A DNA stretch of 64,000 nt from Pelagomonas calceolata (lineage: Eukaryota), in contig CAKKNE010000002.1 in NCBI GenBank assembly GCA_918797485.1, positions 1,984,001-2,048,000 on the forward strand. Reading direction: 5' to 3'. The position numbers and the translations under genes were made by a program. The notes beneath the pieces were generated by a model. It had not been told where the DNA came from, made no database searches, and saw only the letters and a list, made by a program, of their open reading frames with translations. Shown here one piece after another: positions 7,525-37,169 of the stretch; the stretch's first letter is position 1, and each line of letters begins with the position of its first letter.

Positions 7525-8192
7525 CTAGAGGCTCGCGATGATCGCCTTGAGCTTGTTTTTCGCGACGGCGATCTGGTCCTTGGGCTCTTTAGTCTTGACC
7601 TGCGTGGGAACGGAGGAGTCGCGCGTCGATGGCGTGGAGCCTGACGCCATCGACGACACTGCAGCGCACCTTTCCGTTCCCAGGCTGGAAGTAGATGAAG
7701 TTGTTGTCGTAGACGTACCTGCCGGGAACCGCGCGTCGTCGCGGCGACGGAGTCGAAGCGTCGAAGGCAGTGTGTCGCGGCGATGGCGTCGCGGCGGCGT
7801 TTTTTGCCAGACGCGGCCTCGCACTGGTCCGTCAACTGGAGCGCCGACGACAGGTCCTCGGAGAGCTCAATTAATTCCGGGTCGCCGGCGCTGAGCGCCG
7901 CGGCGCGGATCCAGTTCTTGGAGTTGCCCGTTTTCCAGAGCTCGACTACTGGCGATTGCGCGAGCACCGTGCGCACGGCGTCCCACTTGCCGTCGTCGAC
8001 GAAGCCGCTCAGCGGCTGGAGCGCCTCGAGGACCTTCTCGGCGTCGGTCTTGGTCGAGGCGAGCGCCGGCGTCGGCACGAGCACAGGCACGACCGCGGCG
8101 AGCGACCCGCGCTGCAGCGTCTGCCGGCGCGAGAGCGCCATCGATGCCGTTTCGCGCATCACTGCTGCTGCAAGGATGGCAAGTCTAGCCAT
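7525..8192 (-). CDS. Plastid/thylakoid-lumen-type protein, possibly PsbQ-like; introns 7719-7824 and 7600-7669
   Basis: Bipartite leader with a twin-Arg (SRRQTL..PALA). The spliced C-terminus reads LTDQYVYDNNFIYFQPGNGKVKTKEP. Confidence 0.65.
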
Positions 8193-8451
8193 CACTGCAG
8201 TCTGGATGCAAAACTGCAACGATCAAGGTTGCACGATGCAGCAAGATAATAAACGCGACAGCTGCGCTCCGGGTGCTGGTTGTAAAGCCTGTTTTGCTCT
8301 CTGACCAAGGGCTTGAGCTCACTAGTGTGTTACACGCCGCTAGCCGGATCGCGTTGGACCGGCGGTTCACGTGGCCCGTCGTCGTCGTGGGAGCCCCTGT
8401 AGTTTTTTTACAAAATAAACACTTCTATGTACACGTGCGGGAGCCCAGATC

Positions 8452-9478
8452 TCAGGCGCCGTGAAGGACCGCCTCCCCCGCGAACTCGGCGCGGAAGAGC
8501 AGTCGCTGGTATTTGTCCGCATCGAATGGCGACGCCGCATGGAGTAGCTGGCGATTGTCCCATAGCACTAGGTCGCCCTTCTTCCAAGCGTGCGCGTAGA
8601 CGCCCGTCTCGATGACGCGCTCCGCGAGGCGGCGGACCATCGCGTCGCCCTCTTCGACCGTCCTGCCGGACCTGGCGGGCCACCCACTGCGCGGCAGTCT
8701 GCACACGCGCCGCGTGTTCTTCGGGTTCAGGTAGAGAGATAGGCGACCCGTGTCGGGGTGGCGTCGCACGAGCGGCCAGCAGACGTCCGGTTTTTTCGCC
8801 GCGTCGGCGGGCGTGATTTTCTGGCGCTTGGGATCCCGGCGCTCGAGGAGGTGCATGAAGCTCTCCCAGGAATGGACCGACGCGAGCGCTCCGAGCTCGG
8901 CGCGTTCGCTCTCCTCCAAGGCGTCGTAGCCGCGCGCGCACGACGCGAAGCGCGTCGCCGCGCCGACGGGCGGCAGCGCGTCGTCGAGCCAGGCCGGCGC
9001 GTACCTGCGGGGCGTCGTGACGATTTGCCGCGGACGAGGTGCGACGCCGGAGTCGGCACAGCGCGATGGCGCTCTTCGGAGCGGCGAGGAATGAGCCGTC
9101 CGTGTGCCACTCCTCGACGACGTTGAACGCGGGCTTGAATTCGCCGATCTGTTCGCCCTTCCGGCAGCCCTCGACTATTTCTCCGTCGCGCCTCGCGCGG
9201 TAATTTCCCAGGAGCGCCAGGTGCTGACAGCCTCGGACGCCTCGCGACTGGCCCGGCCAGCGGTCGTAGCGGATCAGGGCTCCGAAGTGCTTCGCGAAGC
9301 GTCCCAGCCCGCGCTCGAGCGCTTCCGGTGTCAGATCCTGGTCGCGCAGACATACCACGCCGCATCCATTATCACTCTCCATGGCGTCGTAGATGCGCCG
9401 GACGTCGTCGCCGGTCGCGTCGTCCAGGTCGCAGCCGATGACCTCGACGCCAAAGGGCCGCATGCTGCGAATCTCCAT
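8452..9478 (-). CDS. TauD/TfdA-family 2-oxoglutarate Fe(II) dioxygenase; intron 9005-9059
   Basis: WHTDGSF, PLVRRHPDTGR and WKKGDLVLWDNRQLLH motifs. Confidence 0.9.
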
Positions 9479-9801
9479 GTTCGAAAGCGTCGACGCAGGG
9501 AGGGAGGCGTGCTCGGGCAGCCCTCAGCTTGTGGGCAGCAGCTTGTGGGCAGCCTCAGCTTGTGGGCTGTCTGGAATGCCGGACAGATGCGCGCGCGTCG
9601 TCGCTGCAGGATCACGCGCGGCGATTAGCCGTGGGTTAGAGGCCCGGCAACGATGAATGTACCACGGTGCTTTGGCATCACGAATTGTGAGAGGCTCTGC
9701 TGTGGTCCTCTGAGATTACACCGAGCACCGAGCGCAGGAACGGAACCGGGCGGTGACACGAGTCCTCAGGATCGGTGCGCCCAGCAAGCACTTTATGGCC
9801 T

Positions 9802-10099
9802 TCCATGGCGTCGTAGATGCGCGGACGTCGTCGCCGTTCGCGTCGTCCAGGTCGCAGCCGATGACCTCGACGCCAAAGGGCCGCATGCTGCGAATCTCCA
9901 TGTTCGAAAGCGTCGACGGTCGGTAAGACTTGTGGGCTGTCTGGAATGCCGGACAGATGCGCGCGCGTCGTCGCTGCAGGATCACGCGCGGCGATTAGCC
10001 GTGGGTTAGAGGCCCGGCAACGATGAATGTACCACGGTGCTTTGGCATCAAGGCTCTGCTGTGGTCCTCTGAGCGAGCTGAACCAGCGCCCAGCAAGCA
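9802..10099 (-). pseudogene. Tandem partial duplicate of the TauD 5' end and upstream region
   Basis: Near-identical to 9378-9790, with a 1-nt deletion and truncation after about 35 codons. Confidence 0.8.
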
Positions 10100-10248
10100 G
10101 CGTTTCTCAGACCTAGCGGTCGGTAAGACACTAGCAAGCACCAAGCAAAGTGCAAAGCGCTGCAGAGCTGTCTGTCTCGCGCTTAAGCCAACCACACGCG
10201 TCTAGAACTCGAGTAGCAAGGCTGCGGTCTCGCGTATCAGTGCAAAAG

Positions 10249-11133
10249 ATGAGATCGCCGCAACTCGTCTTGCTCGCCGCGAGCGTCGCGCACTCCTGGG
10301 CCGTCCCACCGACGCTAACGAAGCGGAGCCCCACGCTGCGCAGCCGGCACCTCGCTGTTAATGGAGGCACGGTCGTCGAGCGGCCGCCCTACGCGCTGTC
10401 TGGCTTGGAACGACCGACGCACCGAGGGGCCGTCATGGGCTTTTTGCACAACACGGGCGCGTGGTACGCTCTGTCGGCGGCCTACGTCGCGGCGGCCTTG
10501 AAGCAGCTTCAACCATCATCGTTCTACCCGTCCTTCCTGAGGATAGCTTTAGTGGCGGCGTCGTCCTACTCCATTTATATATCGGACTGTTATCATAATG
10601 CCGACAAACGGAGGGAAGGCGTGTCCGAGGAAGGAGAGTTAGCTGTATTAAGGAAGGACTACCTCGGCATCTCCCTCATCCTGTCGACGAATACGTGGTT
10701 GTGGGCTCATAATTTAGGTGGTTCTCCCATCCTAAATAAGCTTTGTGTAGCAGCTACGGCGTGTACGGCGAACGTGGCCTTCCAGTCGTTCTGTGTGGTC
10801 AATAAATACATCGGTCACGTATTGATAAAACTGACCTTCGCGACGCAGTTCGTGGCCATCCTCGGGACCCTATGTTTGATCGCGGCGAAGTCACCGATCT
10901 CCGCGTGCGCCTGGATCTACGCGGCCTACGCGCCGGGCTTTGTGATTTACGCGACCAAGTTCCCGAAGAACAAAAAGTGGGGCTACCACGAGTGGTTCCA
11001 CGTTTCGGTGCTCATGGGCAACCTCGTGTCGATGGGCTTCGACCTCGGTATTCTTGGTTTGTTCAAGCCCTGCGCGGAGGGCGTCGCCTGCGCGTCGCTG
11101 GCGTCGCGGCTGACCTTCGGGCTGCTGCCCTGA
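10249..11133 (+). CDS. PAQR/hemolysin-III-like multi-pass membrane protein
   Basis: SDCYH, DYLGI and YHEWFH motifs; several TM helices; N-terminal signal. Confidence 0.75.
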   Translation: MRSPQLVLLAASVAHSWAVPPTLTKRSPTLRSRHLAVNGGTVVERPPYALSGLERPTHRGAVMGFLHNTGAWYALSAAYVAAALKQLQPSSFYPSFLRIALVAASSYSIYISDCYHNADKRREGVSEEGELAVLRKDYLGISLILSTNTWLWAHNLGGSPILNKLCVAATACTANVAFQSFCVVNKYIGHVLIKLTFATQFVAILGTLCLIAAKSPISACAWIYAAYAPGFVIYATKFPKNKKWGYHEWFHVSVLMGNLVSMGFDLGILGLFKPCAEGVACASLASRLTFGLLP

Positions 11134-13068: not shown

Positions 13069-13746
13069 TTACGCCGGCGTCGCCTCAGCCAGCACCACGG
13101 CCGGGTCGTCGTCGGGGATCACCGACGCCTGCATGAGGTCGAAGCACAGCAGGAGCGTATGGGGCGAGTCGCAGACCTCCAGCTTCCGATCGCGACACAA
13201 GTCGGCGCACCGCGCGACGAACCAGTGTTCCAATTCGAGCAGCGGCACGCGCATCGTCGAGTCCCTGCCCGCCTTCCGGAAGGCGTCGTCGGCGTGCTGC
13301 AGGACGTCCTCGTCCTGCGGCAGCGACCCGCGCCGCGTCGCGAGGCAGCAGCCCGCGAGCACGGTCAACAGCGCGACGACGACCTCGTCATACGACAGGG
13401 ACCCGACCTGATTAAAGTCGAAGAGCCGCAGCACGAAGTTCGCCTTGCCCTCCAAGGACCCCTGCGAGACGACCGCGAGGCCGCCGAGCACCTCGAGCGC
13501 GTTCACCTCTCCCCCAGAATCGTACTCCGCGAACCTAGGCCAAATCATGTCGCCGACGACGTCCTTCTTCGCGTCGGGGAAGATGGCCCGGACGATTTCT
13601 TTTATTTCTTTTCTGTGCAGCCCGAAGCCGTGGGCTCCAGCTTGATGTCTCCGCCACAAGGCTTCCACATGTTCCAAACTCCAGGTCGTCGGGTCGTTGT
13701 CTATGACTTGAATCGTGCGCTGGACGCCGGACTCGAGGTTGCCCAT
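13069..13746 (-). CDS. Myristoylated EF-hand protein (calcineurin-B/recoverin-like)
   Basis: MGNLES start; GSLEGKANFVLRLFDFNQVGSLSYDE. Confidence 0.7.
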   Translation of the reverse strand: MGNLESGVQRTIQVIDNDPTTWSLEHVEALWRRHQAGAHGFGLHRKEIKEIVRAIFPDAKKDVVGDMIWPRFAEYDSGGEVNALEVLGGLAVVSQGSLEGKANFVLRLFDFNQVGSLSYDEVVVALLTVLAGCCLATRRGSLPQDEDVLQHADDAFRKAGRDSTMRVPLLELEHWFVARCADLCRDRKLEVCDSPHTLLLCFDLMQASVIPDDDPAVVLAEATPA

Positions 13747-14043
13747 GGTTAGTAGGTGCTCTTGGTGGGATAGCTGGGCGTGTCGGTGGCGTGGAGGCAG
13801 CCCCAAAAGTTCTGCGCGCTTTGCGTGGGATACGTACGGCAGCTTCTGGTTCTCTGGTCGTCGAGAGGCTGCTCAGACGACACACAGCGGCCAACTTTGG
13901 CGCTGGCCGCTTTCCCTAGTGTGTCAATAGACGCTAGCTAGCTGCCAGTGCAAACCAGGCCCAGCGGCCATTCCAAGGCACTACGCGTTGTGCGCGGTCG
14001 CGGTACTGTTTTGGACAGCGCCTCCAAAACCCTCGGAGCAGTC

Positions 14044-14523
14044 ATGCGTCTCGTCAGCACGCTAGCACTGCTGAGGGCAGCGCCAGCCAGTGCTCTGGCG
14101 CCCATCGAGCGCCGCACCCTCCTCAAGGGCGCCGCCGCGGCATCCACCATCAGCGCAGCACCCGCGCTGGCCAAAGGCAGCGTGGGCGGCCCAAGCGTCA
14201 AGCTCTGCGACGGCACGCAGTTTCCCGTGGCCAGCTTCGGCCTCCAGGTCTACGACGACGAGGCGGCCTACAAGTACACGACGCTCGCATTAGAGTGCGG
14301 CTACCGGAACTTCTTCGCCAGCGTGCTCGCGGGCAACCAGAAGGGCTTCGGGAAGGCTGTAAGGAATTCGGGCATTCCCCGGGACGAGTTATATATATGC
14401 GGCTCCGTGCTCTCGAATCGAGCGCGGGGCGAGGAGGCCGCCTTCCAATCGACCAAGCGAGGCTGCGACGCGAACTTTAGGGATTTGAATATCGGAAAGC
14501 TCGACATGATCATGCTCGACTAC
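14044..14523 (+). pseudogene. 5' half of an aldo-keto reductase gene, interrupted by an insert
   Basis: Matches the N-terminal half of the 15757-16713 protein up to LDMIMLDY, then diverges. Confidence 0.85.
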
Positions 14524-17500
14524 TCTGGAGCGGGACCGCCGACGCGGTCCGTTCGTGCTTTGGGAGGGTCGTCCGAGGTCGTTTCCTAGAATGATGGCGC
14601 TGGGTGGTTTCTTTTTGATTTTTGAGCCGGTTCCGGCGGGGTCGGAGATCCCGAGAGGGCCTCGGTGGGTTCGGGGCGAAGGGCGGTGCTGGGGCGGTCC
14701 GGAGCGGTGGCGGGACCGCTCTCGACGCCGTCGGCGCGGCGCCGGTGCCTTGGATGCTCTGGAGGTCTTTAGGGGTGCACGGGCGCCGTCCGCGGCGCCG
14801 GCGGGGTCGCGAGGGCCCTTCGGGCAGCCTACGGTGAAGAACGGCGCCGGAACGGGCACGGCGGTGTGTGATCGAGGGCCCTGTACGCCTGTCGACGCGG
14901 CGGCGCCCTGGATGTGGTCTGGAGCCCTGGCGTGCCGCCGGCCGGTTCATGACGTGGACTGTGGAGCGTAGCTTTGTCAGAATCCGTTGACAACGATCAC
15001 TTTTATAGGGATCGGGCCGAGGTCGAAATGTCCTCAAGCCCAACTCCGCTTAAACGAGCTATCGAAGAGGTGTGCAATGGTCGCGCGGCCGTCAAGCTGT
15101 CCCAGGCGAGGCGTATACGTACGGCTCGTGGCGCGGCGTTTTCGACTGCCTGAGGCCCCGGCGGGACGTCGTCGATGCCGTCGACGCGGACGAAGCCATT
15201 GATGGGTGCTCGGAGCCGTGCCTCTGGCGGCTACAGCTACACATTACGTCTCGCGGCGAGGTCCTACGCCAGCGAAGGCGGCGGCCCGGACGACTAGTTT
15301 TTGCTAATAATTGCTGTGTGTCTCGACTGCGAACTCCTTATGAGCGCTGGGGGAAAGAGGAAACGACACGCGGAGGATGTCGGCCATGCCCCAGGCCCGG
15401 CCTTCGCTGCTGGGCCCCCGCTCCACCCGGAAGGTGCAGCCGGTCCAGTCGTCGCGCGCCTCGTTCTTGTGGTTGTTCTCGTCCGTCGCCATGGTCCTCT
15501 GCGCCGCGCTGGCGCCGTAGACGGCCGCCGCCCCAGATCGTTCTGCGCTCTGCGATTTTTTTGATTCGCAAAGGGGCCTCGCGCCCCCCGGCCGGGTCCG
15601 CGGCGCGGGCGCGGCCCGGGAGGGCTCGGGGGCCTTGGGGGAGGTACTACTACGGAATTACTAGTCGCTGGAGGCGTCGGGGACTGTTGCCGCGCGGGCC
15701 GGCACCCCGTTTAGATGTTGCCATGCTGGATGATGGACGACCAATAGTTCATTAATTTACAGAACTAAGTTCTCGCCGTCCAGGAACGCGAGGTCCTTCG
15801 CCGACAGCTCGAAGTCGAAGACGTCGATGTCCTCCTGAAAATGCTGGCGGGACGTCGTCTGGCACGTGTACGTCGCGCCCTTGGCCAGGATCCACTTCAG
15901 GGCGATTTGTTGGGGCGTCTTGCCGTACTGCTTCCCCACCGCGGCGCACGCGCTCAAGGCGCCCGAGTTCAGCACTCTGAGAGGAGACCAGGCCTGCACC
16001 AATACGTTGCGCTTCTTGTTCTCCCGGAGTAACTCCGCGTTCTGTTTCGTCTTGTAGCCGACGCCCAGCGGTAATTGATTGACCGTCGGCCGGCCACCAC
16101 CACTCTTCAGCACGACATCCAGCTGCGCGGGCGAGAAATTCGACACCGCGAGGGACGTGACGCCGCCGTCCTTCCGCATCGCTTCCAAGCCGCGCCATTG
16201 GCCCTGGATGGACTCGGCGTCCGGCCCTGGGTAATCCAACATAATCATATCCAACTTGCCGACGTTCAGATCCCTAAAGTTCGCGTCGCAGCCTCGCCCC
16301 GTCGACTGGAAGGCGGCTTCCTCGCCCCTAGCTCTGTTCGATAGTACGGAGCCGCATATATATAACTCGTCCCGGGGAATGCCCGAGGCTCGCACGGCCT
16401 TCCCGAAGCCCTTCTGGTTGCCGGCTAGAACGCTGGCGAAGAAGTTCCGGTAGCCGCACTCCAGCGCTAGTGTGGTGTACTTGTAGGCCGCCTCGTCGTC
16501 GTAGACCTGGAGGCCGAAGGACACGACAGGGAACTGCGTGCCGTCGCAGAGCTTGACGCTTGGGCCGCCCGCGCTGCCTTTGGCCAGCGCGGGTGCGGCA
16601 CTGATGGTGGACGCGGCGGCGGCGCCCTTGAGGAGGGTGCGGCGCTCGACGGGTGCCAGCGCGGTGGCTGGCAGCGCTGCACTGAGCAGTGCTAGCGTGC
16701 TGAGGAGACGCATGACTGCTCCGAGGGGTTGTAGGCGCCGGCCAGAGATGCGCCGCGCCGCGACCGCGTCACGAAGCCTGGCTGCCTTGAATGGCCGCTT
16801 GCCTTTGCTTCTCGTGCTATTTTTGTAAGCAAGATAGTGGCAAAAATACAGCGTTTCAGTCGTTTTGTTTGCGATGAGCTACTACTGGTGCTGGTGCTGC
16901 CAGAGCACGCGCAGCAGTCGTTGCTGCGGCGAGCGAGGCTACGAGGGAGCTTGCAAACGAACGCCTTGAACGCTTGAACGTCCTCCCGGTCAAGAGTCCG
17001 ACGAACGTCGCAGACCAGGCCTCCCTGGCTGGGAGAGCATCAGCAGCCTCACAGCCCTCGAGCTCAACCGAGCCGCATTGATCACCAAAGGGCGCAGCGG
17101 TGCCTCAGGATCACGCATCGATGCCAGCCGGCGACCATTGGCCTCTCGTTTGATCAGTGCCGCGCCGCACACACACTGCATTGCCTCAGGGGCTCTGCAG
17201 TAGTACCTGAAAGGCGTGGCGTTACGTCGCGCGTCGCGTCGAGGCGTAAGGGTGGACGAGTCACAGTCTCTCGACGGATACTGAGAGCTGCGCACCGCCA
17301 CGACGTCGACCGGTCCTGTCCGCGGGACGCGCCCGGCTCCGCCCGAGCTGCTCTAGGCGCCCGGGACCGCCGTCACGCCGTCGACGCATCGGCTGGCGTA
17401 CCACGACCGCGCCGCACCGGCGCACGGCCCGCGACGGCGCCGTTCTCGAAGCTTCACCAGTAGCTCCGGAACCCGACGACGTCGCGCCCGAAATGGCCTC

Positions 17501-17628
17501 AAATTCGAAAAAGAAACCGCCCCCGGCCATCATTCCTGGAGACGACGCGCCTCGACCCCCCGAAACCTTCGCTACGCGACGGGAGGCCGAGATACGACGG
17601 GGCCCTTCCGGTCGTCGGTAAGTTGGAT
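14524..17628. mobile_element. ~3.1-kb insert with degenerate inverted ends carrying an intact AKR copy (Pack-element-like)
   Basis: Flanked by an exact 18-bp direct repeat at 14506-14523 / 17629-17646; imperfect inverted repeat at ~14558-14630 / ~17495-17567; no transposase seen. Confidence 0.6.
15757..16713 (-). CDS. Aldo-keto reductase (intact copy; possibly plastid-targeted)
   Basis: AKR motifs: FGLQVY, GIPRDELYI, LAVSNF, VQAWSPL, YGKTPQQIALKW, DVFDFELS. Confidence 0.9.
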   Translation of the reverse strand: MRLLSTLALLSAALPATALAPVERRTLLKGAAAASTISAAPALAKGSAGGPSVKLCDGTQFPVVSFGLQVYDDEAAYKYTTLALECGYRNFFASVLAGNQKGFGKAVRASGIPRDELYICGSVLSNRARGEEAAFQSTGRGCDANFRDLNVGKLDMIMLDYPGPDAESIQGQWRGLEAMRKDGGVTSLAVSNFSPAQLDVVLKSGGGRPTVNQLPLGVGYKTKQNAELLRENKKRNVLVQAWSPLRVLNSGALSACAAVGKQYGKTPQQIALKWILAKGATYTCQTTSRQHFQEDIDVFDFELSAKDLAFLDGENLVL

Positions 17629-18117
17629 ATGATCATGCTCGACTACCCGGGACCGGACGCCGAGTCCATCCAGGGCCAGTGGCGCGGCCTCGAGAATATG
17701 CGGAAAGATGGTGGGGTGACCTCTCTCGCGGTGTCGAACTTCTCTCCCCAACAGTTAGACGTCGTGCTGAAGAGTCCTGGACGTTGTACGGTGAATCAAC
17801 TGCCGCTCGGCGTCGGCTACAAGACCAAGCAAAACGCGGAGTTGCTCCGCGAGAACAAGAAGCGTAGTGTCTTGGTGCAGGCCTGGTCGCCGCTAAGGGT
17901 GCTGTCGTCGGGCGCGCTCAGCGCTTGTGCGGCCGTGGGGAAGCAGTACGGCAAGACGCCCCAGCAAATCGCCCTGAAGTGGATTCTCGCCAAGGGCGCG
18001 ACGTACACCTGCCAGACGACGTCCCGCCAACACTTCCAGGAGGACATCGACGTCTTCGACTTTGAGCTGTCCGCGAAGGACCTCGCGTTTCTGGATGGAG
18101 AGAACCTAGTTCTGTAA
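17613..18117 (+). pseudogene. 3' half of the interrupted aldo-keto reductase gene
   Basis: VGKLDMIMLDYPGPDAES..FLDGENLVL*, nearly identical in protein to the intact copy. Confidence 0.85.
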
Positions 18118-18124
18118 CACACGT

Positions 18125-19318
18125 TTAGTTATTTTGGGGCCGCCGGTCGTCGAGCATCGCCACGTCTAAACCGGGCGCCGGCCGCGCCGCGCGGTCGGCC
18201 TCGGCCGCGCGTAGAGCCCGGGCACCGGCGTCCCCTATTTTGTTGCCGCCGACCTCGACGGTCTCGACGGCCGACCTCGCGAGCGCCGCCGCGAGCGCGA
18301 TCGCGCCGGTATCTGTCATGCCCGTCTTGCTAATTCCTAATGTACGCAGGTTCGACTCGTCGGGAGGAGGTTTGCGCAGGTCGACATCGGCAAGGAAGGG
18401 CGCCTCTATGCACTCCGCAATGGCCGTCACGCCGTCGTCGCCGAACGCGTTATCATTGATGAAGATCGACGCCGCGCCGCCCCCGATCAGAGCAATGGCG
18501 CCTCTCGATGAAATCCCCGTGCCCGACGCGTCGATGACATCCAAGGGCGCGTCCGACGCGGCGACGGCTTCGGCACCGGCGTCGCCCGCTTCCTCATTGT
18601 TCGCGTACCGCAGCTCTACCAATGAAGACGCTTTTTCTGCTATCGCTTTGATCGATGCGGCGTCTAAGCCGCAGTTCGACACGTCGAGCCGAAAGAGCTT
18701 CCGGCCCGGCGCGAAATCAATACAGTCGAAGGCGCCCGGTGCTAAGTCCGCGCACCTTAAACTCACGACGTTCGCGGCGAGCACGGGGACCCGTCGCGCC
18801 TGGAGGCAGCCGGACACGTCGAGGTGGCGCAGCGGCCTTTCTCTCGCCTGGAGTGCTTTGCCGAGCGCCACGATGCCCGGCTCGCCGACGTCGTTGCGCG
18901 CCAGGTCGAGGCGGTCCAACCCCTCGGAGAGCGCCGCCGCGAGCGAAACGACGCCGGCGTCGCCAATACCCTTGGCCTCGAGGTGCAGCTGTTTAAAGGA
19001 AGGGCAGCGAAAGCACAGCGCCAGGGCTTGGGCGCCGTCGTCGCCGAGCGTCGCGTCGCCCGCATCTAGGATCTCGAGCGTCGTCGACGCGCCGGCGGCG
19101 CGGCCGAGCGCGGCCGCGCCGACGGCACTGATGGAGTGGCCGCTGCACCGTAGTTCCTTGAGTTTGGCCGTCGGCGACCGCATCGCGGTCGCGAGCTTTA
19201 CGGCCGCGGCGTCATCGAAAACGCGGCCGGCGAGCACGACGACGCACGCGAGGCGGCCGCTCTCGACGCCTTCTACTAAGTCATCGATGCTGCGCTTCTG
19301 CGCGCCCCAGGCGCTCAT
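18125..19318 (-). CDS. Leucine-rich-repeat protein (RNI-like)
   Basis: Repeated LxLxxNxIGDxGAxAL units. Confidence 0.85.
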   Translation of the reverse strand: MSAWGAQKRSIDDLVEGVESGRLACVVVLAGRVFDDAAAVKLATAMRSPTAKLKELRCSGHSISAVGAAALGRAAGASTTLEILDAGDATLGDDGAQALALCFRCPSFKQLHLEAKGIGDAGVVSLAAALSEGLDRLDLARNDVGEPGIVALGKALQARERPLRHLDVSGCLQARRVPVLAANVVSLRCADLAPGAFDCIDFAPGRKLFRLDVSNCGLDAASIKAIAEKASSLVELRYANNEEAGDAGAEAVAASDAPLDVIDASGTGISSRGAIALIGGGAASIFINDNAFGDDGVTAIAECIEAPFLADVDLRKPPPDESNLRTLGISKTGMTDTGAIALAAALARSAVETVEVGGNKIGDAGARALRAAEADRAARPAPGLDVAMLDDRRPQNN

Positions 19319-21722: not shown

Positions 21723-23340
21723 ATGCGTCAAGTACGTCCGCGCCGCCACGCGGCGGCAGCCCGCGCCGGCAGCGGCCGTGCGACGCGCCGGAAGAGCGGC
21801 GGGGCAGCTGTGCCCATCCTCCCACTCCTGCTGCTGCTCGGCACGAGCCCCGTCGTCTACGTCATGTTGCGCTACGAGACACCGGACGACGCGGTCGCGC
21901 CACCGCCGGCGCCGGCGCCGAAGCGACCGCATCTGCGGCCGCGCGCCCCGCCGCCGCCCCGGCCGGACCCGAGGCCGAACAAGCAGATCGCCGGCCTCGC
22001 CGAGCGGGCGCGCCTCGAGCGAGAAAAGGCCAAGGCCGAGCCCGTCGCCGACATCGGGCTCCCGCCCATGTACGGCGGCCCCGCCACGAAGCCGAAGACG
22101 CTCGGCCTGGACCGGTGCGCCGCGTTCCGTTCAGCTCAGGGGCCGCGGGGCCGGCCGGCCGTGGCGGGCCTCTTCAACACGGGCACGAATTTTCTGATGA
22201 AGCTGCTGAGGCTGAACTGCGATTTTCCGGACGCGTGCCCCGCGCAACCGCACATAAAAGTAGATAAGGACAACCCCTACGAGGCGGAGATCCGCATCAT
22301 GGCCGAGATGCAGATGGCGCGGCGCAACAATTGTAGTCCGTTTTTGCTGCAGGTGCCGTGGGGGAAGCACAACCCCGTGGACTGGCGCGGGCAGCACGCG
22401 GCGCAGGGCCTGGAGGGCGTCGATGTCGACGGTGTCCTGCCCGTGGTCGTGGTCAAGGACCCGTTCACGTGGATGCGGAGCATGTGCCGCATGGATCTGT
22501 GTGGAAATCAAGTCATGCTCCGCGGCCCTGGTTTCGGCTCAAACTCGGACACGATCTCCGAGAGATACACGCGACCAACTGGCCCGAGCGGCACCTCCCG
22601 CAACCCACGACACGCCTCACATTGAAGGGCGCTTGAACTTTGGTTGCCTCACAGGTATGGAGTACGCCGCGAAGTTCCGGCACGGCCAGGCCCAGTGCTG
22701 CCCGCACCCCGTCATGAAGACGAGGACAGTGGTTAGGTTTCGTCGTGAAAGGCCTCCCAGAAACTACACGTCCATCGTCGACATGTGGCGCGAGTGGAAC
22801 CAGGCCTACGTGGACGTCGAGTTCCCCCGGCTGATGGTGCGGTACGAGGACTTGCTCTTTAACAGCCAGGAAACCACCAAAGAAGTGTGCGAATGTGCGG
22901 GCGGGAAGATGAAAGCCGTGTTTGATCCCATTGCGGAGGGCGCGAAAGGCGGCGCCGGGCATGGGTATCATGAGACCGGGCATAATGTGGCTGCTCTCAA
23001 ATTCTCGAACGAGAGTCTGAGGTACGCGCATCTGACGGACGCCGACGTGGCGTACGTGTTGGACCACGCCGGGCCGTTGCAAGACAAGTTCCACTACCCC
23101 GCGTCGATTAGTCGGAGGAGATTGTTCGGCGAGAAACGGATCTGCCAGCCGGACCGGGAGAAGTGGCTGAACTCGGTCGGTTTAAAGACGTCACGGGACG
23201 GCCCCGTGCCCATCGACGACGAGTCGGACGGGGTGGTGGTCAACGGCTTCTTCTTCCGGAACCCGAAGAAGCCGCGGCGGCCGGGCCAGATCTTCCAGGC
23301 CATCCAGAAGGCGAACCGGGCGCACCGGGGGCACCGGTGA
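21723..23340 (+). CDS. Type II membrane sulfotransferase-like protein; GC-AG intron 22489-22654
   Basis: N-terminal TM, GLFNTGTN, VPWGKH, KDPFTW and VRYEDLL. Splicing restores SMCRMEY. Confidence 0.75.
22489..22654 (+). mobile_element. Introner intron with GC donor taken from the TSD
   Basis: TSD gcatggat / gtatggag; TIR ctgtgtggaaatc..gttgcctcacag. Confidence 0.85.
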
Positions 23341-28516: not shown

Positions 28517-30507
28517 CTACAGCTCGCGCGCCCGCTCGCGCAGGACGAACTTCTGGATCTTCCCTGTCGATGTCCGAGGCAGCTCTCCAAAAACCACGGT
28601 CTTCGGCGCCGCGAACTTGGGCAGCCGCGCCTTCGCGAAGGCGAGGAGCTCGGCCGCGTCGACGTCCTCCGTCGTTTCGACGAAGGCGCAGGGCGTCTCG
28701 CCCCACTTCTCGTCGGGCCGCGCGACGACGGCGCACAACGCGACGGCGTCGTGCTCCATGAGCGCCGCCTCGACGCTGAGTGAGGACACGTTCTCGCCGC
28801 CCGAGATAATCAGGTCCTTGGACCGGTCGCGGATCGCGACGTAGCCGTCCTCGTCCTTCACGGCGAGGTCGCCCGACGCCAGCGCGCCCAGCTTAAATGC
28901 GGCAGCCGTCGCCGCCTCGTCCTTGAGGTAGCCCTTCATCACGACGTTGCCGCCGAAGACGACCTCGCCCATCGTTTGCCCATCGCGCGGCACCGGCGCG
29001 CCCGTGTCAGGATCGACGACGTCCAATCGTCCGCCCGCGGCGTGCGCGACGCCCTGGCGCGCCGTCTTCGCCGGGATGTCAGAAGCGGGCCACGTCGACC
29101 GCTTTTCACAAACCGCGGCCGGGCCGAACGTCTCGGTCATGCCGTAGACGTGCGTGACGTCTAACCCCGCGGCGGCCGCGCGCCGCAGCGTCGCCGCCGC
29201 GGGCGCCGCGCCCGCGGTCATCATCCTTATTCTACGCCCCGGCGCCGCCCGCTCCATGGCCTGGATCGCGAGGTTCACGACGATCGGCGCGCCGCAGAGG
29301 TGCGTCACGCCCTGCTCGGCGAAGGCGTGCGCGATGCCGTCGACCGTCACGTCGCGGAGGCAGACGTTCGTGCCGCCGACGGCCGCGAGCGTGCTCGGGA
29401 AGCCCCAGCCGTTGCCTGTGCGTTGTACGCCATTAGCACGCCATCGCCGCGATTCTTTCGCACACGGGCACAGTACAGTGGAACATGGGCAGCGTCCAGA
29501 GGTAGCGCGTGCCGCCGTCGGCCGGCAGGCCCCCAAAGTCGATCGCGTTCGAGAGGGCCTGGACGTAGGCGCCCCGGTGGTGCACGACGACGCCCTTTGG
29601 TCTTCCGGTCGTCCCCGACCTGTGTGGAAATCAACCAGTGTATTGGGTGCACGATGACATGGCCGCGCTGGCTCCGTCGCGCGGTGAGGAACCGACGTCG
29701 CCACGCCATCGAGCAGGCGTCGCGTCGATGGCGTGAAGCGTAAATTTGATTTCCACACAGTCCCCGACGTGTAGTTGAGCGCGAGCGCGTCCCACTCGTC
29801 CTCGGGTGGCGTCCACGGCGCCGCCGCGTCGCCGCTCGCGACGAGCGCCTCGTAGCCGTCGGCGCGGCCGCCGACGACGACCAGGGGCGGCGGGTTCTCG
29901 AGCGTCGCGAGCGCCTCGCGGCACGTCGCCTCGTAGCGCTCGTCGGCTATAAATAAGCGCGCGTCGCTGTGCTCGAGGACGTACGCGACCGTCGCGGCGT
30001 CGAGGCGCGTGTTCACGCTGCCGAGCGTCGCGCCCGACATCGCGACGCCTTGTTGGGCCTCGACCATCTCGGCCGTGTTGTCGAGCATGCACTGCACGAC
30101 GTCGCCGCGCCCGCAGCCCTGCTTGCGGAGGGCGTCGCCGAGCCGCGCGCAGCGGTCGTAGAGCTCCGCCCACGTCCGCGTGCGGTCGCCGTCGACGACC
30201 TGTGTTGAAATCAAACTTTACGGCGCGTTCGCGCTGAATCATCGCGTCGTCCTCCACGCCATCGACGCGACGCCTGCTCGATGGCGGCGATGCCGGTTCC
30301 TCACCGCTCGACCGAGCCAGGACGGCCGCATCATCGCCGGCACCCGACGCACTGGTTGATTTCCACACAGTGGACGACCGCGGGGCCGTCGGCGAAGACA
30401 TGCCTAGCGCGGTCGATGAACGCCAACGGCGTGAGCGGGATGAAGTTCGCGCCGGGGCGTTTGGGGAAGGCGTTGACGGAGAGTCGTCTCACAGCGAGGC
30501 GGTGCAT
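28517..30507 (-). CDS. Acyl-CoA synthetase / acyl-activating enzyme; introns 30200-30378, 29620-29768, 29416-29476
   Basis: Splicing restores YTSGTTGRPKG and PMFHCNGWG; also HVYGMTE, DRSKDLIISGGEN and LPRTSTGKIQK. Confidence 0.93.
29620..29768 (-). mobile_element. Young introner intron (perfect 15-bp TIR, perfect 8-bp TSD)
   Basis: ctgtgtggaaatcaa..ttgatttccacacag; TSD tccccgac at 29612-19 and 29761-68. Confidence 0.95.
30200..30378 (-). mobile_element. Introner intron
   Basis: TIR ctgtgttgaaatcaa..ttgatttccacacag; TSD tcgacgac / tggacgac. Confidence 0.92.
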
Positions 30508-34418: not shown

Positions 34419-34844
34419 TAGGGATGTTTAGTGGTTTATCTATCTCGTACGGCGGCGTCGCGCCGCGAGGACTTGGGGGTAAAACAGGTTTTCAATCGCG
34501 ATACGCGAGTTGCGTGGCGAGCTCGGTACGGCCGCGTAAGAGCCCAAAAGGAGGCGCCGCGCGCAACGCTCTCGCACAAAGCGATGGCCGAGCGGCCCAT
34601 CGCCGGCCCCTGGACCAAAGCTGGCGAGCGACCATAACGCGGCCGACGCGGCAACGCTGGGAAGTGGGCGCCAGCGCCGCTCGAGGCTGCTGGTGGCGCG
34701 CCGCCGCCAAAAAAAGACCTTCGAAGACGCGTGTGTGGAGGAAGACATAACAAGCACCGCCCCAAGCGGACGAAGAAATGAGCCGGTCTACAGCTTGCGG
34801 CGGCGGTGAGAAACTGGAGCGGCGGCTAGCAATACATGTACATA

Positions 34845-36368
34845 TTATTCGCGCCGGAGGAGCGCTACAATCGCCAGAGCGATAGCGAGCGGCGCGACGA
34901 ATGATTGCGTCGTCGCTGTTGCGCTGTCCACGGCCGTGCCGTGACTGCTGTCCGCCGTCGCGAGTTCCCACGCGAACCCGTCGCCCGGTACCGCCTGCAG
35001 GAGTGGGTCCCAGTAGAAGGAACCACATGACTCCGGTGCGTCTGAGGCGTTCGCTGTGATGCTGAAAACGGAGCCGTGCGGTCGGTACGAAATCCCGCCC
35101 TCGACACACCGCCCGCCGGCTCCTAGATAATTGACGCCCACGCCGGTAAAGTACGGCGTCGGGTTCGCGGCGTCCGTACTCAATTCGTCGAGCGCGTACT
35201 CCCGGTACACGTCGTCGTAGAACTTCACGGAGGCCGCCACGCTCTCGCCGGTGGCTTTGCACACGAACGTCGAGGCGAAGCGCAGGAGTTCCTTGTATCC
35301 GTCGGAGTCGCACGTCGACAGGAACGACGCCTCCTTGAGCGCCCGGCGCTTCACGACGACCACGACCTCCTCGCCCGTATACCAGACGTGTATGGCGTTT
35401 CGTAGACCCGCCTCCGTCTCGCAGGTCGTCGCGTCGATGGGGACGGTGAGCTCCAGGTCGATGCCTCCACCGGCCTTCGGCTCGATCTCCCACACAACCT
35501 CCGTATCACACCCGTTCTCGCCCGTGAAGGTTTTGGCGTACTGGAGGCCCTCGTTCCGGCCGTCCTGCTTGGCAAGCTCGCGGTCGGCATCGCTCTTGAA
35601 GATATACGACCGCGTCGTGGCCGGGCCCCTCGTCTTCTCAATCAGGACGCCACCGTCGTAAAAGGCTCGTTCATACGTGACCTCGCCGTTGTTGTACTCG
35701 GAATCGTCGCAGACCGTACCTTCGACGCCGTAGGGGAGCGAGTGCCTAAACGATTCCCCGGCGGCCCAGCTCTCGTGGTTGAGGTGCGGATCGACATGGT
35801 TTACGTTTCCCATGTCCATCAGCAACCCGGGCCAGTGGTTAAGGCTCTGTCCGGTGTGGGGCAGCGTCGTGAGCCCCGCCGGCGGGTCCGGGTACTCGCA
35901 CGACTCGTTCGAGGGCTCGGCGCAGTCCGTGAGGCGCCTATCTTCGTGGGTGGAGTTGGTAGAGTTGGTAGAGTTGCGAAGGTCCACCGGTTGTAGCGGC
36001 CCAGGCGGAGGCCCGACTTGCTCCTCGAGAAACTTGCACGGTTTCTGAGAATGAAATTCGCTGGTTGCGCCTATCATCGTGTATTGCGCGACGGGGTCGA
36101 GCGCGAGCGTGGACCCCTGGCCGTCGGGGCCTTTGGTGGCGCAGGCGAACGAGTACTTCGGCGAGTAAGCGCCGACGACGTCACAATCGTTGCCGTCGCA
36201 GACGTACGACTGCGAGAACATGGTGATGGCCCGCTCGCCGGCGGCGAAGCCGTCGGTCCATTTCTGCCATTTATCTACGCACTTTGGGGCGCCGGCCGGG
36301 CCATTCCACTGCTCCTTTGGTTCGGCCGATGCGACAGCCAGGAGTGCGAGGAGCCGAGGCCCCAGCAT
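34845..36368 (-). CDS. Secreted Cys-containing protein with hydrophobic C-terminus (possible GPI/TM anchor)
   Basis: Signal peptide MLGPRLLALLAVASA, S/T-rich stretch and hydrophobic tail. Confidence 0.75.
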   Translation of the reverse strand: MLGPRLLALLAVASAEPKEQWNGPAGAPKCVDKWQKWTDGFAAGERAITMFSQSYVCDGNDCDVVGAYSPKYSFACATKGPDGQGSTLALDPVAQYTMIGATSEFHSQKPCKFLEEQVGPPPGPLQPVDLRNSTNSTNSTHEDRRLTDCAEPSNESCEYPDPPAGLTTLPHTGQSLNHWPGLLMDMGNVNHVDPHLNHESWAAGESFRHSLPYGVEGTVCDDSEYNNGEVTYERAFYDGGVLIEKTRGPATTRSYIFKSDADRELAKQDGRNEGLQYAKTFTGENGCDTEVVWEIEPKAGGGIDLELTVPIDATTCETEAGLRNAIHVWYTGEEVVVVVKRRALKEASFLSTCDSDGYKELLRFASTFVCKATGESVAASVKFYDDVYREYALDELSTDAANPTPYFTGVGVNYLGAGGRCVEGGISYRPHGSVFSITANASDAPESCGSFYWDPLLQAVPGDGFAWELATADSSHGTAVDSATATTQSFVAPLAIALAIVALLRRE

Positions 36369-36836
36369 TTGTTTCGATTCGTGTGTCGCTGCCCCAATCG
36401 CAGTCCTGCGGCCGCACGCAAGAGGACAAAAATTGAGATGGGCAGTGGGGCCAGAGGCTGTGATCCTAGTGTCTTGCGTCGGAGTGCTGAGGACTAGCTA
36501 GCCGGGTTAGAAGTTTTATAAAAGAGTGCTGAGGACTAGCTGGCCACCTTACGCCATCGACGCGAAGCAACATACTAGAAACGTTCGGCAGCCGCCCGGC
36601 GCCACGATCGACGAGGAAGACGCACTGCGACCACCCGCACGCCATCGACGCGGCGTCGTCCTGGTCGAGACCCGCCACACCCGACAGCCGACCACGGAGA
36701 GCGGCCGAGTTGCAATAGCTTCCGAAGCTCCCCTAGTCAAGGCGGTTTGGGTTCGGCAAGAGGGCAGCTGCGTGGTCCGGTCGCGATGCGTGAGTCCAAA
36801 AATGCAAAAAAAGAAGGAGCACGACGTGTGCTAATA

Positions 36837-36937
36837 TGCGAATTACCCGGATCGAACGGGTGACCTACAGATCTTCAGTCTGGCGCTCTCCCAACTGAGC
36901 TATCGATACCCAAGTGGAATACAGGGGTCAAATCCGC
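36837..36937 (-). tRNA. tRNA-Phe(GAA) with a 28-nt non-canonical intron (36902-36929, position 8/9)
   Basis: The spliced product GCGGATTT|AGCTCAGTTGGGAGAGCGCCAGACTGAAGATCTG..GTTCGATCC..AATTCGCA is a 73-nt typical Phe tRNA; a T-run follows downstream. Confidence 0.92.
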
Positions 36938-37169
36938 GAGCGTTGAGTGATCACCATTTGTGAGCTCCTGACTGGAGAAATGAATTCGCCAGCGAAACCC
37001 CGATCTGAAATGCGTTGCCGAAAAACCCGGTTCCATCCGGGGCCGCAAACGACTCTCAAAAATCAAACAAACGAGGGCCTCGCGAACGCGGCCGACGCGG
37101 CAACGCTGGGAAGTGGGCGCCAGCGCCGCTCGAGGCTGCCGGTGGCGCGCCGCCGCCCGGGAAGCAGCC

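Follow-up and report, generated by a model that had tools for sequence, protein, structure and literature searches.

Background

Bacterial prophages and integrative elements carry in some cases a replacement piece of the gene that they enter, as e14 does in icd. Among repeat elements that capture genes, the Pack-TYPE transposons (Pack-MULE, Pack-CACTA) have a described route of capture through a hybrid of two neighbouring elements (PMC13317346, in excerpt), and the composite insertions formed by maize Ac/fAc change the expression of a related gene (bioRxiv 10.1101/2020.08.10.245175, in excerpt). Here we describe a locus of the marine alga Pelagomonas calceolata that shares features with these systems. 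It lies in a window of 64,000 nucleotides, the whole stretch of DNA that was analysed (contig CAKKNE010000002.1 of assembly GCA_918797485.1, positions 1,984,001 to 2,048,000, G+C about 64%). In this window an aldo-keto-reductase-like (AKR-like) gene, called allele A below, is split by an insert of 3.09 kb which is bounded by repeat sequence on both sides and encloses an intact, inverted copy of the same gene, called B, that we read as another allele. The species is among the most abundant marine eukaryotes, and its genome, obtained by long-read assembly and checked by Hi-C, has been described as homozygous (PMC9481584, in excerpt). Neither this locus nor the capture of a disrupted gene's own allele was found described in the literature searched. 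The scope of the present account is one locus in one strain.

Structure of the split gene locus

The original prediction, made by a model from the letters of the sequence, proposed an AKR gene split in two halves by an insert that carries a complete inverted copy of the same gene, and this layout is borne out. The 5' half of allele A (160 codons, 14044-14523, plus strand) is preceded by an upstream region (13952-14043, plus strand) homologous to 16714-16810, and its frame enters the insert for 21 codons up to a stop at 14589; the 3' half (167 codons, plus strand) extends from 17614 to 18117, and neither half carries a stop. From left to right, the insert is composed of a 1.17-kb segment X (14524-15688), which is a copy of a dispersed repeat family and has no Pfam match, of a captured segment (15689-16815), and of a segment Y divided into an inner part (16816-17203) and an outer part (17204-17613, minus strand), the latter being inverted relative to X. 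The captured segment includes the 3' tip of the convergent LRR gene (about 15689-15755, plus strand), the whole gene B in inverted orientation (318 aa, PF00248, 15757-16713, minus strand) and about 90-100 nt of upstream DNA (16714-16815, minus strand), which lacks the conserved block located 110-140 nt upstream of the ATG. The copy pattern across the locus is 2-3-2, with the middle copy inverted. The complete, diverged AKR copy and the LRR tip had both been recognised as cargo, but the cargo was thought to begin about 25 nt before the ATG of B, whereas it reaches to about 16815. As it contains upstream DNA and the tip of a convergent gene, its source was genomic DNA, in agreement with what had been proposed.

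Among the 24 sequencing runs listed, 14 contain at least half of the sampled words, and three DNA runs (X1, X3 and X14), coming from three studies and one of them possibly the source of the assembly, were compared. Contigs without differences cross the left junction in runs X1 and X3, the X/B border in runs X3 and X14, and both the B/Y border and the right junction in all three runs; these junction contigs are at single-copy depth. No empty-site joint was found in the contigs of these runs, which drop rare forms. The split-gene structure with its inverted inner copy is thus confirmed as real. A mis-join of two haplotypes during assembly, named in the original prediction as what would undo it, would agree with the fact that none of the contigs listed spans the whole insert and that the repeat-rich stretch 15240-15630 has no bridging unique contig; it is very improbable given four junctions crossed without differences across three studies, single-copy depth and no empty allele seen.

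Wild loci and the derived state

A metagenome scan returned at least 595 stretches, among which at least six loci were confirmed (L001-L006); two low-share wild runs (X18 and X20) were left out, and metagenome contigs and proteins may be mosaics, which limits comparisons between alleles. Protein identity is 92-94% for L001 and L005 and 74-85% for L002-L004, the latter three being likely from one sister species. A single AKR gene, unsplit at the insert site, follows the EF-hand gene in L001-L005, and the LRR gene stands behind it in L001-L004 and L006. The site is fully spanned and intact in L001-L003 and L005 and is crossed by L004, while L006 covers the 3' side. The corresponding neighbours in the window are the EF-hand gene at 13069-13746 (minus strand), present on the left in every wild locus reaching that far, and the intact LRR gene at 18125-19318 (minus strand). 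Moreover, two wild RNA contigs join the halves directly (14484 to 17615 and 14489 to 17613), and the sequence of X and Y is missing from the six wild loci, except for one 23-nt GC-rich match in three of them. The wild state is thus a single intact AKR gene flanked by the EF-hand and LRR genes, and the insert is derived.

Allele B and its distance from the halves

B differs from the halves at 12-15% of positions (85-88% identity), and nearly all of these differences are synonymous; the comparison of substitution rates suggested with the original prediction gives dS of 0.48 and 0.87, dN of 0.04 and dN/dS of 0.089 and 0.047 for B against the two halves. The proportion of synonymous sites that differ (pS) is 0.38 and 0.51 in the same comparisons, 0.26-0.41 among three wild allele pairs and 0.33-0.53 between the window copies and wild alleles, and the sister species is set apart by the nonsynonymous proportion (pN, 0.09-0.13 vs 0.00-0.07). 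As the distance between B and the halves about equals that between wild alleles, B is best read, from these sequence distances, as an uncommon allele of the same species and not as an old paralog. The divergence of the inner copy had been noticed beforehand; its agreement with wild-allele distances, which points to a diploid stage, had been missed.

At the protein level, the mean residue distance among 29 full-length environmental proteins is 7.0, and the mean distance to these proteins is 7.0 for the two halves taken together, 11.1 for B and 33.7 for the sister species. B has rare or private residues (STGRG, KRNVL and VLNSG, which occur in none of 44 environmental proteins), while the halves are typical. 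Wild RNA contigs contain stretches of 147 and 99 nt identical to B, and another wild RNA contig, of run X15 (16565-16870), extends over the B/Y border and differs at 2 of 306 nt; such stretches could come from free B alleles or from the same insertion. Among named sequences, the AKR pieces are most closely related to Pelagomonas calceolata proteins, one being a gene model and the other a UniRef entry that continues past the 5' half into the insert. No relative of the AKR was found in viral contigs.

Several observations concern the AKR gene and its alleles in general. The catalytic set of AKR proteins is Asp-Tyr-Lys-His; when B (15757-16713) is aligned to solved AKRs, the positions of this set read roughly F, A, S, D, and the same holds in wild alleles. 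The N-terminus of B is signal-peptide-like with a twin-arginine motif (by eye), and its product may be a non-canonical, plastid-targeted AKR-like protein. Some wild alleles (L001, about 919-1060; P0002-P0005) have this N-terminal signal region tandemly duplicated, giving proteins of 343-344 aa. The apparent alleles (L001, L005 and L006 against the window) differ at 26-53% of synonymous sites and display fine-scale mosaic patterns, which suggests very high diversity and recombination in the species; by filtered read mapping, 51 SNPs/Mb have been reported for Pelagomonas calceolata, far below the allele distances at the AKR locus (PMC10087736, in excerpt).

Junctions of the insert

The gene stretch that is duplicated at the junctions measures 33 nt, or 11 codons (left copy 14491-14523, right copy 17614-17646, both plus strand). 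An overlap of about 38 nt differing mostly at synonymous sites had been predicted; its length is reduced here, and it is taken from two allelic forms, with 5 differences, 4 of them synonymous, all within the first 15 nt. The remaining 18 positions are the same in both copies and form the exact 18-bp repeat already located at both junctions (14506-14523 and 17629-17646), which encodes MIMLDY. This 18-mer is identical in wild allele L001 and in sister-species L003 (17/18 in L005), and 23-26% of the 18-nt windows are identical between two well-overlapping wild allele pairs. Because of this sharing, it needs no special explanation; judged by its sequence it is ordinary conserved coding DNA and no evidence of an attachment core. 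The attL/attR crossover core of the original prediction is therefore not retained, as the 18-mer is conserved coding sequence and is accompanied neither by a recombinase nor by an empty-site joint in the contigs of runs X1, X3 and X14, which drop rare forms.

L001 is identical to the 5' half over its final 35 nt, the whole left copy of the overlap included, and agrees at 55 of 56 nt from the core onward, and the 15 nt between are B-like. The right flank matches B at 19/20 over its first 20 nt before changing to the L001 type. With these matches on both sides, the two halves have the appearance of a single allele in which 13-18 nt are duplicated and 15-20 nt at the right junction are of another allelic type. 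Decayed AKR sequence just inside the junctions is not significant (random segments scoring as well: 45-100/1000 on the left, 144-508/1000 on the right), and no short target site duplication (TSD) was found, in the sense of a direct repeat of at least 7 nt flush with both ends besides the gene overlap.

Expression

Two stranded RNA runs of one sample were used, at about 6% of each, with the strand assignment confirmed by the flanking genes. On the minus strand, B has a depth of 21-64 over 15776-16477, against about 5 close to its 5' end. In allele A, the 5' half has a depth of 4-16, continuing on the plus strand through X, and the 3' half a depth of 30-70, with transcription starting within Y. 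RNA exits 16900-17100 in both directions, some of the reads there coming from a second copy (inner Y is partly present a second time elsewhere in the genome), and a bidirectional promoter may be located in inner Y. No read joining the halves was found among 3956 and 2934 reads in the two runs. The gene is interrupted at residue 160 of 318, halfway through the fold that solved AKRs match, so that neither half would be expected to fold alone. The expression of the three AKR pieces, proposed earlier as a check, thus consists of transcription of B and of both halves, and the idea that B replaces the disrupted gene is supported to the extent that an intact B is transcribed and that reads joining the halves were not found.

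If the insert were spliced out as a long intron, or otherwise lost from the RNA or the DNA, allele A would still work. Such a reading would account for two halves that are undecayed and transcribed, and a public model (P0137, CAH0368016.1) does join them. We consider this scarcely credible in the face of the missing joint among the RNA reads, of a public protein (P0035) that runs from the 5' half into X, and of the joined model itself, which has SGAGPPTRS for the conserved PGPDAE. CAH0368016.1 is probably a mis-annotation, because its intron is unseen in the RNA reads.

Repeat family in X and Y

X and outer Y hold inverted arms (14559-14636, plus strand, and 17488-17565, minus strand) of 78 nt that are 71% alike, a value reached by none of 500 shuffles. 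They begin 35 and 48 nt inside the junctions, and the outermost pieces are unrelated (365 of 500 shuffles as good). The degenerate inverted repeats that the original prediction placed just inside the junctions are retained as arms, which are not flush with these junctions, and the patchy similarity reported further in is marginal (1/200 shuffles and 6/300 random window segments as good).

In DNA run X3 (at 85% likeness), the summed contig depth over X is 2-22 times single-copy and rises to as much as 18 times in the right arm. Many loose contig ends are found at 14579 and 17545; the family-wide core begins at about 14579 in the left arm and ends at about 17545 in Y. Related copies occur in wild runs, including a 493-nt wild contig that is about 90% identical to 14659-15129. 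As to other copies of the ends, which the original prediction advised looking for, the contig depth and the loose ends show that the ends belong to a multi-copy family. Two frames of X, searched at the protein level, gave 15 and 13 ORFs, all sharing a highly conserved module of X (15373-15561), with up to 100% identity. The best-matching family ORFs depart from the window sequence at 15373 and several return to it later, which makes X an internally deleted member of a longer family, whose longer members have extra sequence at 15372/15373. P0164, P0167, P0171 and P0174 continue into differing sequence beyond the module, and no Pfam family was matched by the set of 15 ORFs nor by the 28 together (15 + 13).

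None of the 16 insert ORFs matches Pfam above the cut-off (one weak Rossmann-like match, E 0.067), and no recombinase was found among these 16 or among 25 long ORFs of the window. Rfam gave no match in 13500-18500, and the arm and module patterns had no match in the viral contigs or prokaryote genomes searched. The annotation of the species lists at least one Tc1-like DDE gene and at least two retroelement-like genes. X and outer Y belong to a dispersed, apparently non-coding, multi-copy repeat family, undescribed in the literature searched (by searches that could not match by sequence). The insert is either a single long-armed element or a pair of elements whose like ends point outward. Of the non-autonomous Pack-type element initially proposed, the non-coding multi-copy ends are present, and the canonical form is not supported, the arms being non-terminal and a short TSD being missing.

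Two further candidates were set aside. Helitrons have a 3' hairpin and a CTRR end and insert between A and T; here, the end folds are no better than those of shuffles (z 0.7-1.2) and the junction bases do not fit. A possible relation of the arm core to the C-terminal portion of P0161/P0165, obtained by back-translation and a 21-nt joint, was not seen in tblastn and is not relied on. As an observation apart, positions 15374-15551 of the module are 99% identical in a high-depth wild RNA contig (run X17), far closer than the coding alleles, which hints at a recent spread of the family.

Origin of the insertion

We tentatively favour, at somewhat less than even probability, an origin by repeat-associated break repair with template switching to the homolog, the product being kept because B restores the protein. 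In a heterozygous A/B cell (zygote or meiosis), a repeat element or a related pair with like ends outward would have been joined into a staggered break in A, which would have duplicated 13-18 nt; repair synthesis would then have moved over to the paired homolog, from which 1.13 kb of B would have been copied in inverted orientation, and a second short switch would have left the 15-20 nt of B-type sequence at the right junction. With B supplying the protein, the insertion could be tolerated by a lineage that has only one chromosome set. For two alleles to meet at one locus, two chromosomes in one cell, or DNA uptake, would be required, and homolog pairing is favoured by the cargo coming from exactly the locus where it sits, which needs no coincidence. 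The diploid stage, the order of events and the complementation of allele A by B are all inferred. In the available account of the genome, 18 of 23 meiosis genes are present in Pelagomonas calceolata, and meiosis is inferred there from gene content and GC pattern (PMC9481584, in excerpt). Several points weigh against this origin. A minimum of four junctions is required, and no intermediate was observed; likeness between the arms is only 71%, and their position is not terminal; the 20-nt block has one mismatch to B and resembles wild alleles as well (12/15 in L005), so that a third allele may be its source; the mean residue distance of B (11.1) exceeds the highest wild mean (9.9, 29 proteins), so that long isolation inside the insert fits as well; and the wild conspecific DNA contigs number only three and are possibly consensus mosaics.

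The most serious competitor we hold to be unlikely although with appreciable weight: in an older event within one lineage, element ends inserted into allele B would have captured the intact gene from the sister chromatid, in the manner of the maize composite insertions, and later crosses would have made the broken halves A-type, the collinear halves being replaced up to the junctions by wild A-type sequence while the inverted inner copy was shielded from exchange. Such a history would explain why B-like residue is confined to the right junction (19/20 nt), why B and not the halves has rare or private residues (0/44 environmental proteins), why the arms have diverged and why a wild contig crosses the B/Y border with few differences (run X15, 16565-16870, 2 in 306 nt). 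It requires a 33-nt initial duplication with conversion to within 4 nt of the left junction, and that both halves match one wild haplotype across the site is less expected under independent replacement. An inverted-triplication rearrangement between homologs (DUP-TRP/INV-DUP or ODIRA-like), with the repeats as filler or later gain and without element activity, agrees with the 2-3-2 pattern and inverted middle, and a 73-nt direct repeat surrounds a second insert (34636-37157), so that long duplications may be a repair habit of this genome; we regard it as improbable, since the wild loci are without X or Y besides the 23-nt match and filler does not predict the same family arm, inverted, at both outer ends. 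Quite improbable is the mechanism of the original prediction, a DNA circle bearing B and a short AKR fragment that entered allele A by crossover in the 18-nt core. A left copy of A-type plus core and a right copy of other type plus core do form the formal crossover pattern, and the right junction (19/20 nt B, then L001 type) still fits it; the core, however, is a piece of conserved coding sequence that L001 and sister-species L003 share, AKR likeness past it is weak at the left junction (45-100/1000), no recombinase or other Pfam domain lies above the cut-off in the 16 insert ORFs, the contigs of runs X1, X3 and X14, which drop rare forms, contain no empty-site joint, and the 1.1 kb of homology on the circle would be expected to recombine instead. 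To a similarly small degree, we consider that the repeat family may be an undescribed kind of eukaryotic element which habitually enters a conserved gene together with a working, synonymously different allele of the same gene (disrupt-and-rescue), and which at mating may spread into empty alleles by copying, with a donor tract of 15-20 nt left next to the insert.

Two or three wild-type alleles joined at one locus, in a genome described as homozygous, would be physical evidence that a diploid stage (or DNA uptake) has occurred in a species whose AKR locus combines very high allele diversity with an abundant transcribed repeat family. Capture from a paired homolog is a suggested route to self-rescuing insertions.

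Other features of the window

Related short inserts occur in pairs in the window (29606-29738 with 30252-30380, and 1498-1615 with 22518-22642), the former pair having inverted ends and resembling the introner elements of this species (PMC9481584, in excerpt). The second insert mentioned above, of about 2.4 kb, is flanked by a 73-nt direct repeat with 1 mismatch (34636-34708 and 37085-37157); it contains a 550-codon stop-to-stop frame (34845-36497, minus strand) without Pfam match and, by eye, a tRNA-like stretch at about 36836-36910 that was not called by ARAGORN. Finally, a TauD-family gene at 8408-10073 has its 5' end and upstream region partly duplicated in tandem, and the sister-species loci L002 and L003 have no match to this region (8168-10258).

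Comparison with known systems

The bacterial elements of the e14 type resemble this insert in that they hold a synonymously diverged version of the target sequence and keep the function available; here, no integrase is found, the rescue is by a whole inverted gene and not by an in-frame replacement end, and no excision was seen. As in Pack-TYPE transposons, multi-copy non-coding repeat ends surround captured genomic DNA, the family includes internal deletions (PMC13317346, in excerpt) and no transposase occurs among the 16 insert ORFs (Pfam), whereas the arms are non-terminal and 71% alike, a short TSD is missing, and the cargo is a whole gene, the other allele of the disrupted gene, at its own locus. 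The maize Ac/fAc composite insertions likewise have element ends that enclose DNA from a nearby donor locus, but with an 8-bp TSD and a copy from the same chromosome, in place of the 33-nt overlap of two allelic forms and the 12-15% diverged copy described here (10.1101/2020.08.10.245175, in excerpt). The DUP-TRP/INV-DUP rearrangements share the 2-3-2 pattern with inverted middle, attributed there to template switching, and differ in that the wild locus here has no pre-existing inverted repeats, foreign repeat lies on both sides and the scale is 1 kb (PMC11293582, in excerpt). The pelagophyte introner elements, from the same species, are also repeats with inverted ends in coding sequence, but they are of about 200 nt and spliced, unlike this unspliced insert of 3.09 kb (PMC9481584, in excerpt). 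As the insert lacks a defining feature of each of the Pack-type, composite-insertion and inverted-triplication systems, we assign it to none of them and regard it as a real, derived and likely self-rescuing insertion, an element-associated gene capture seen at one locus.

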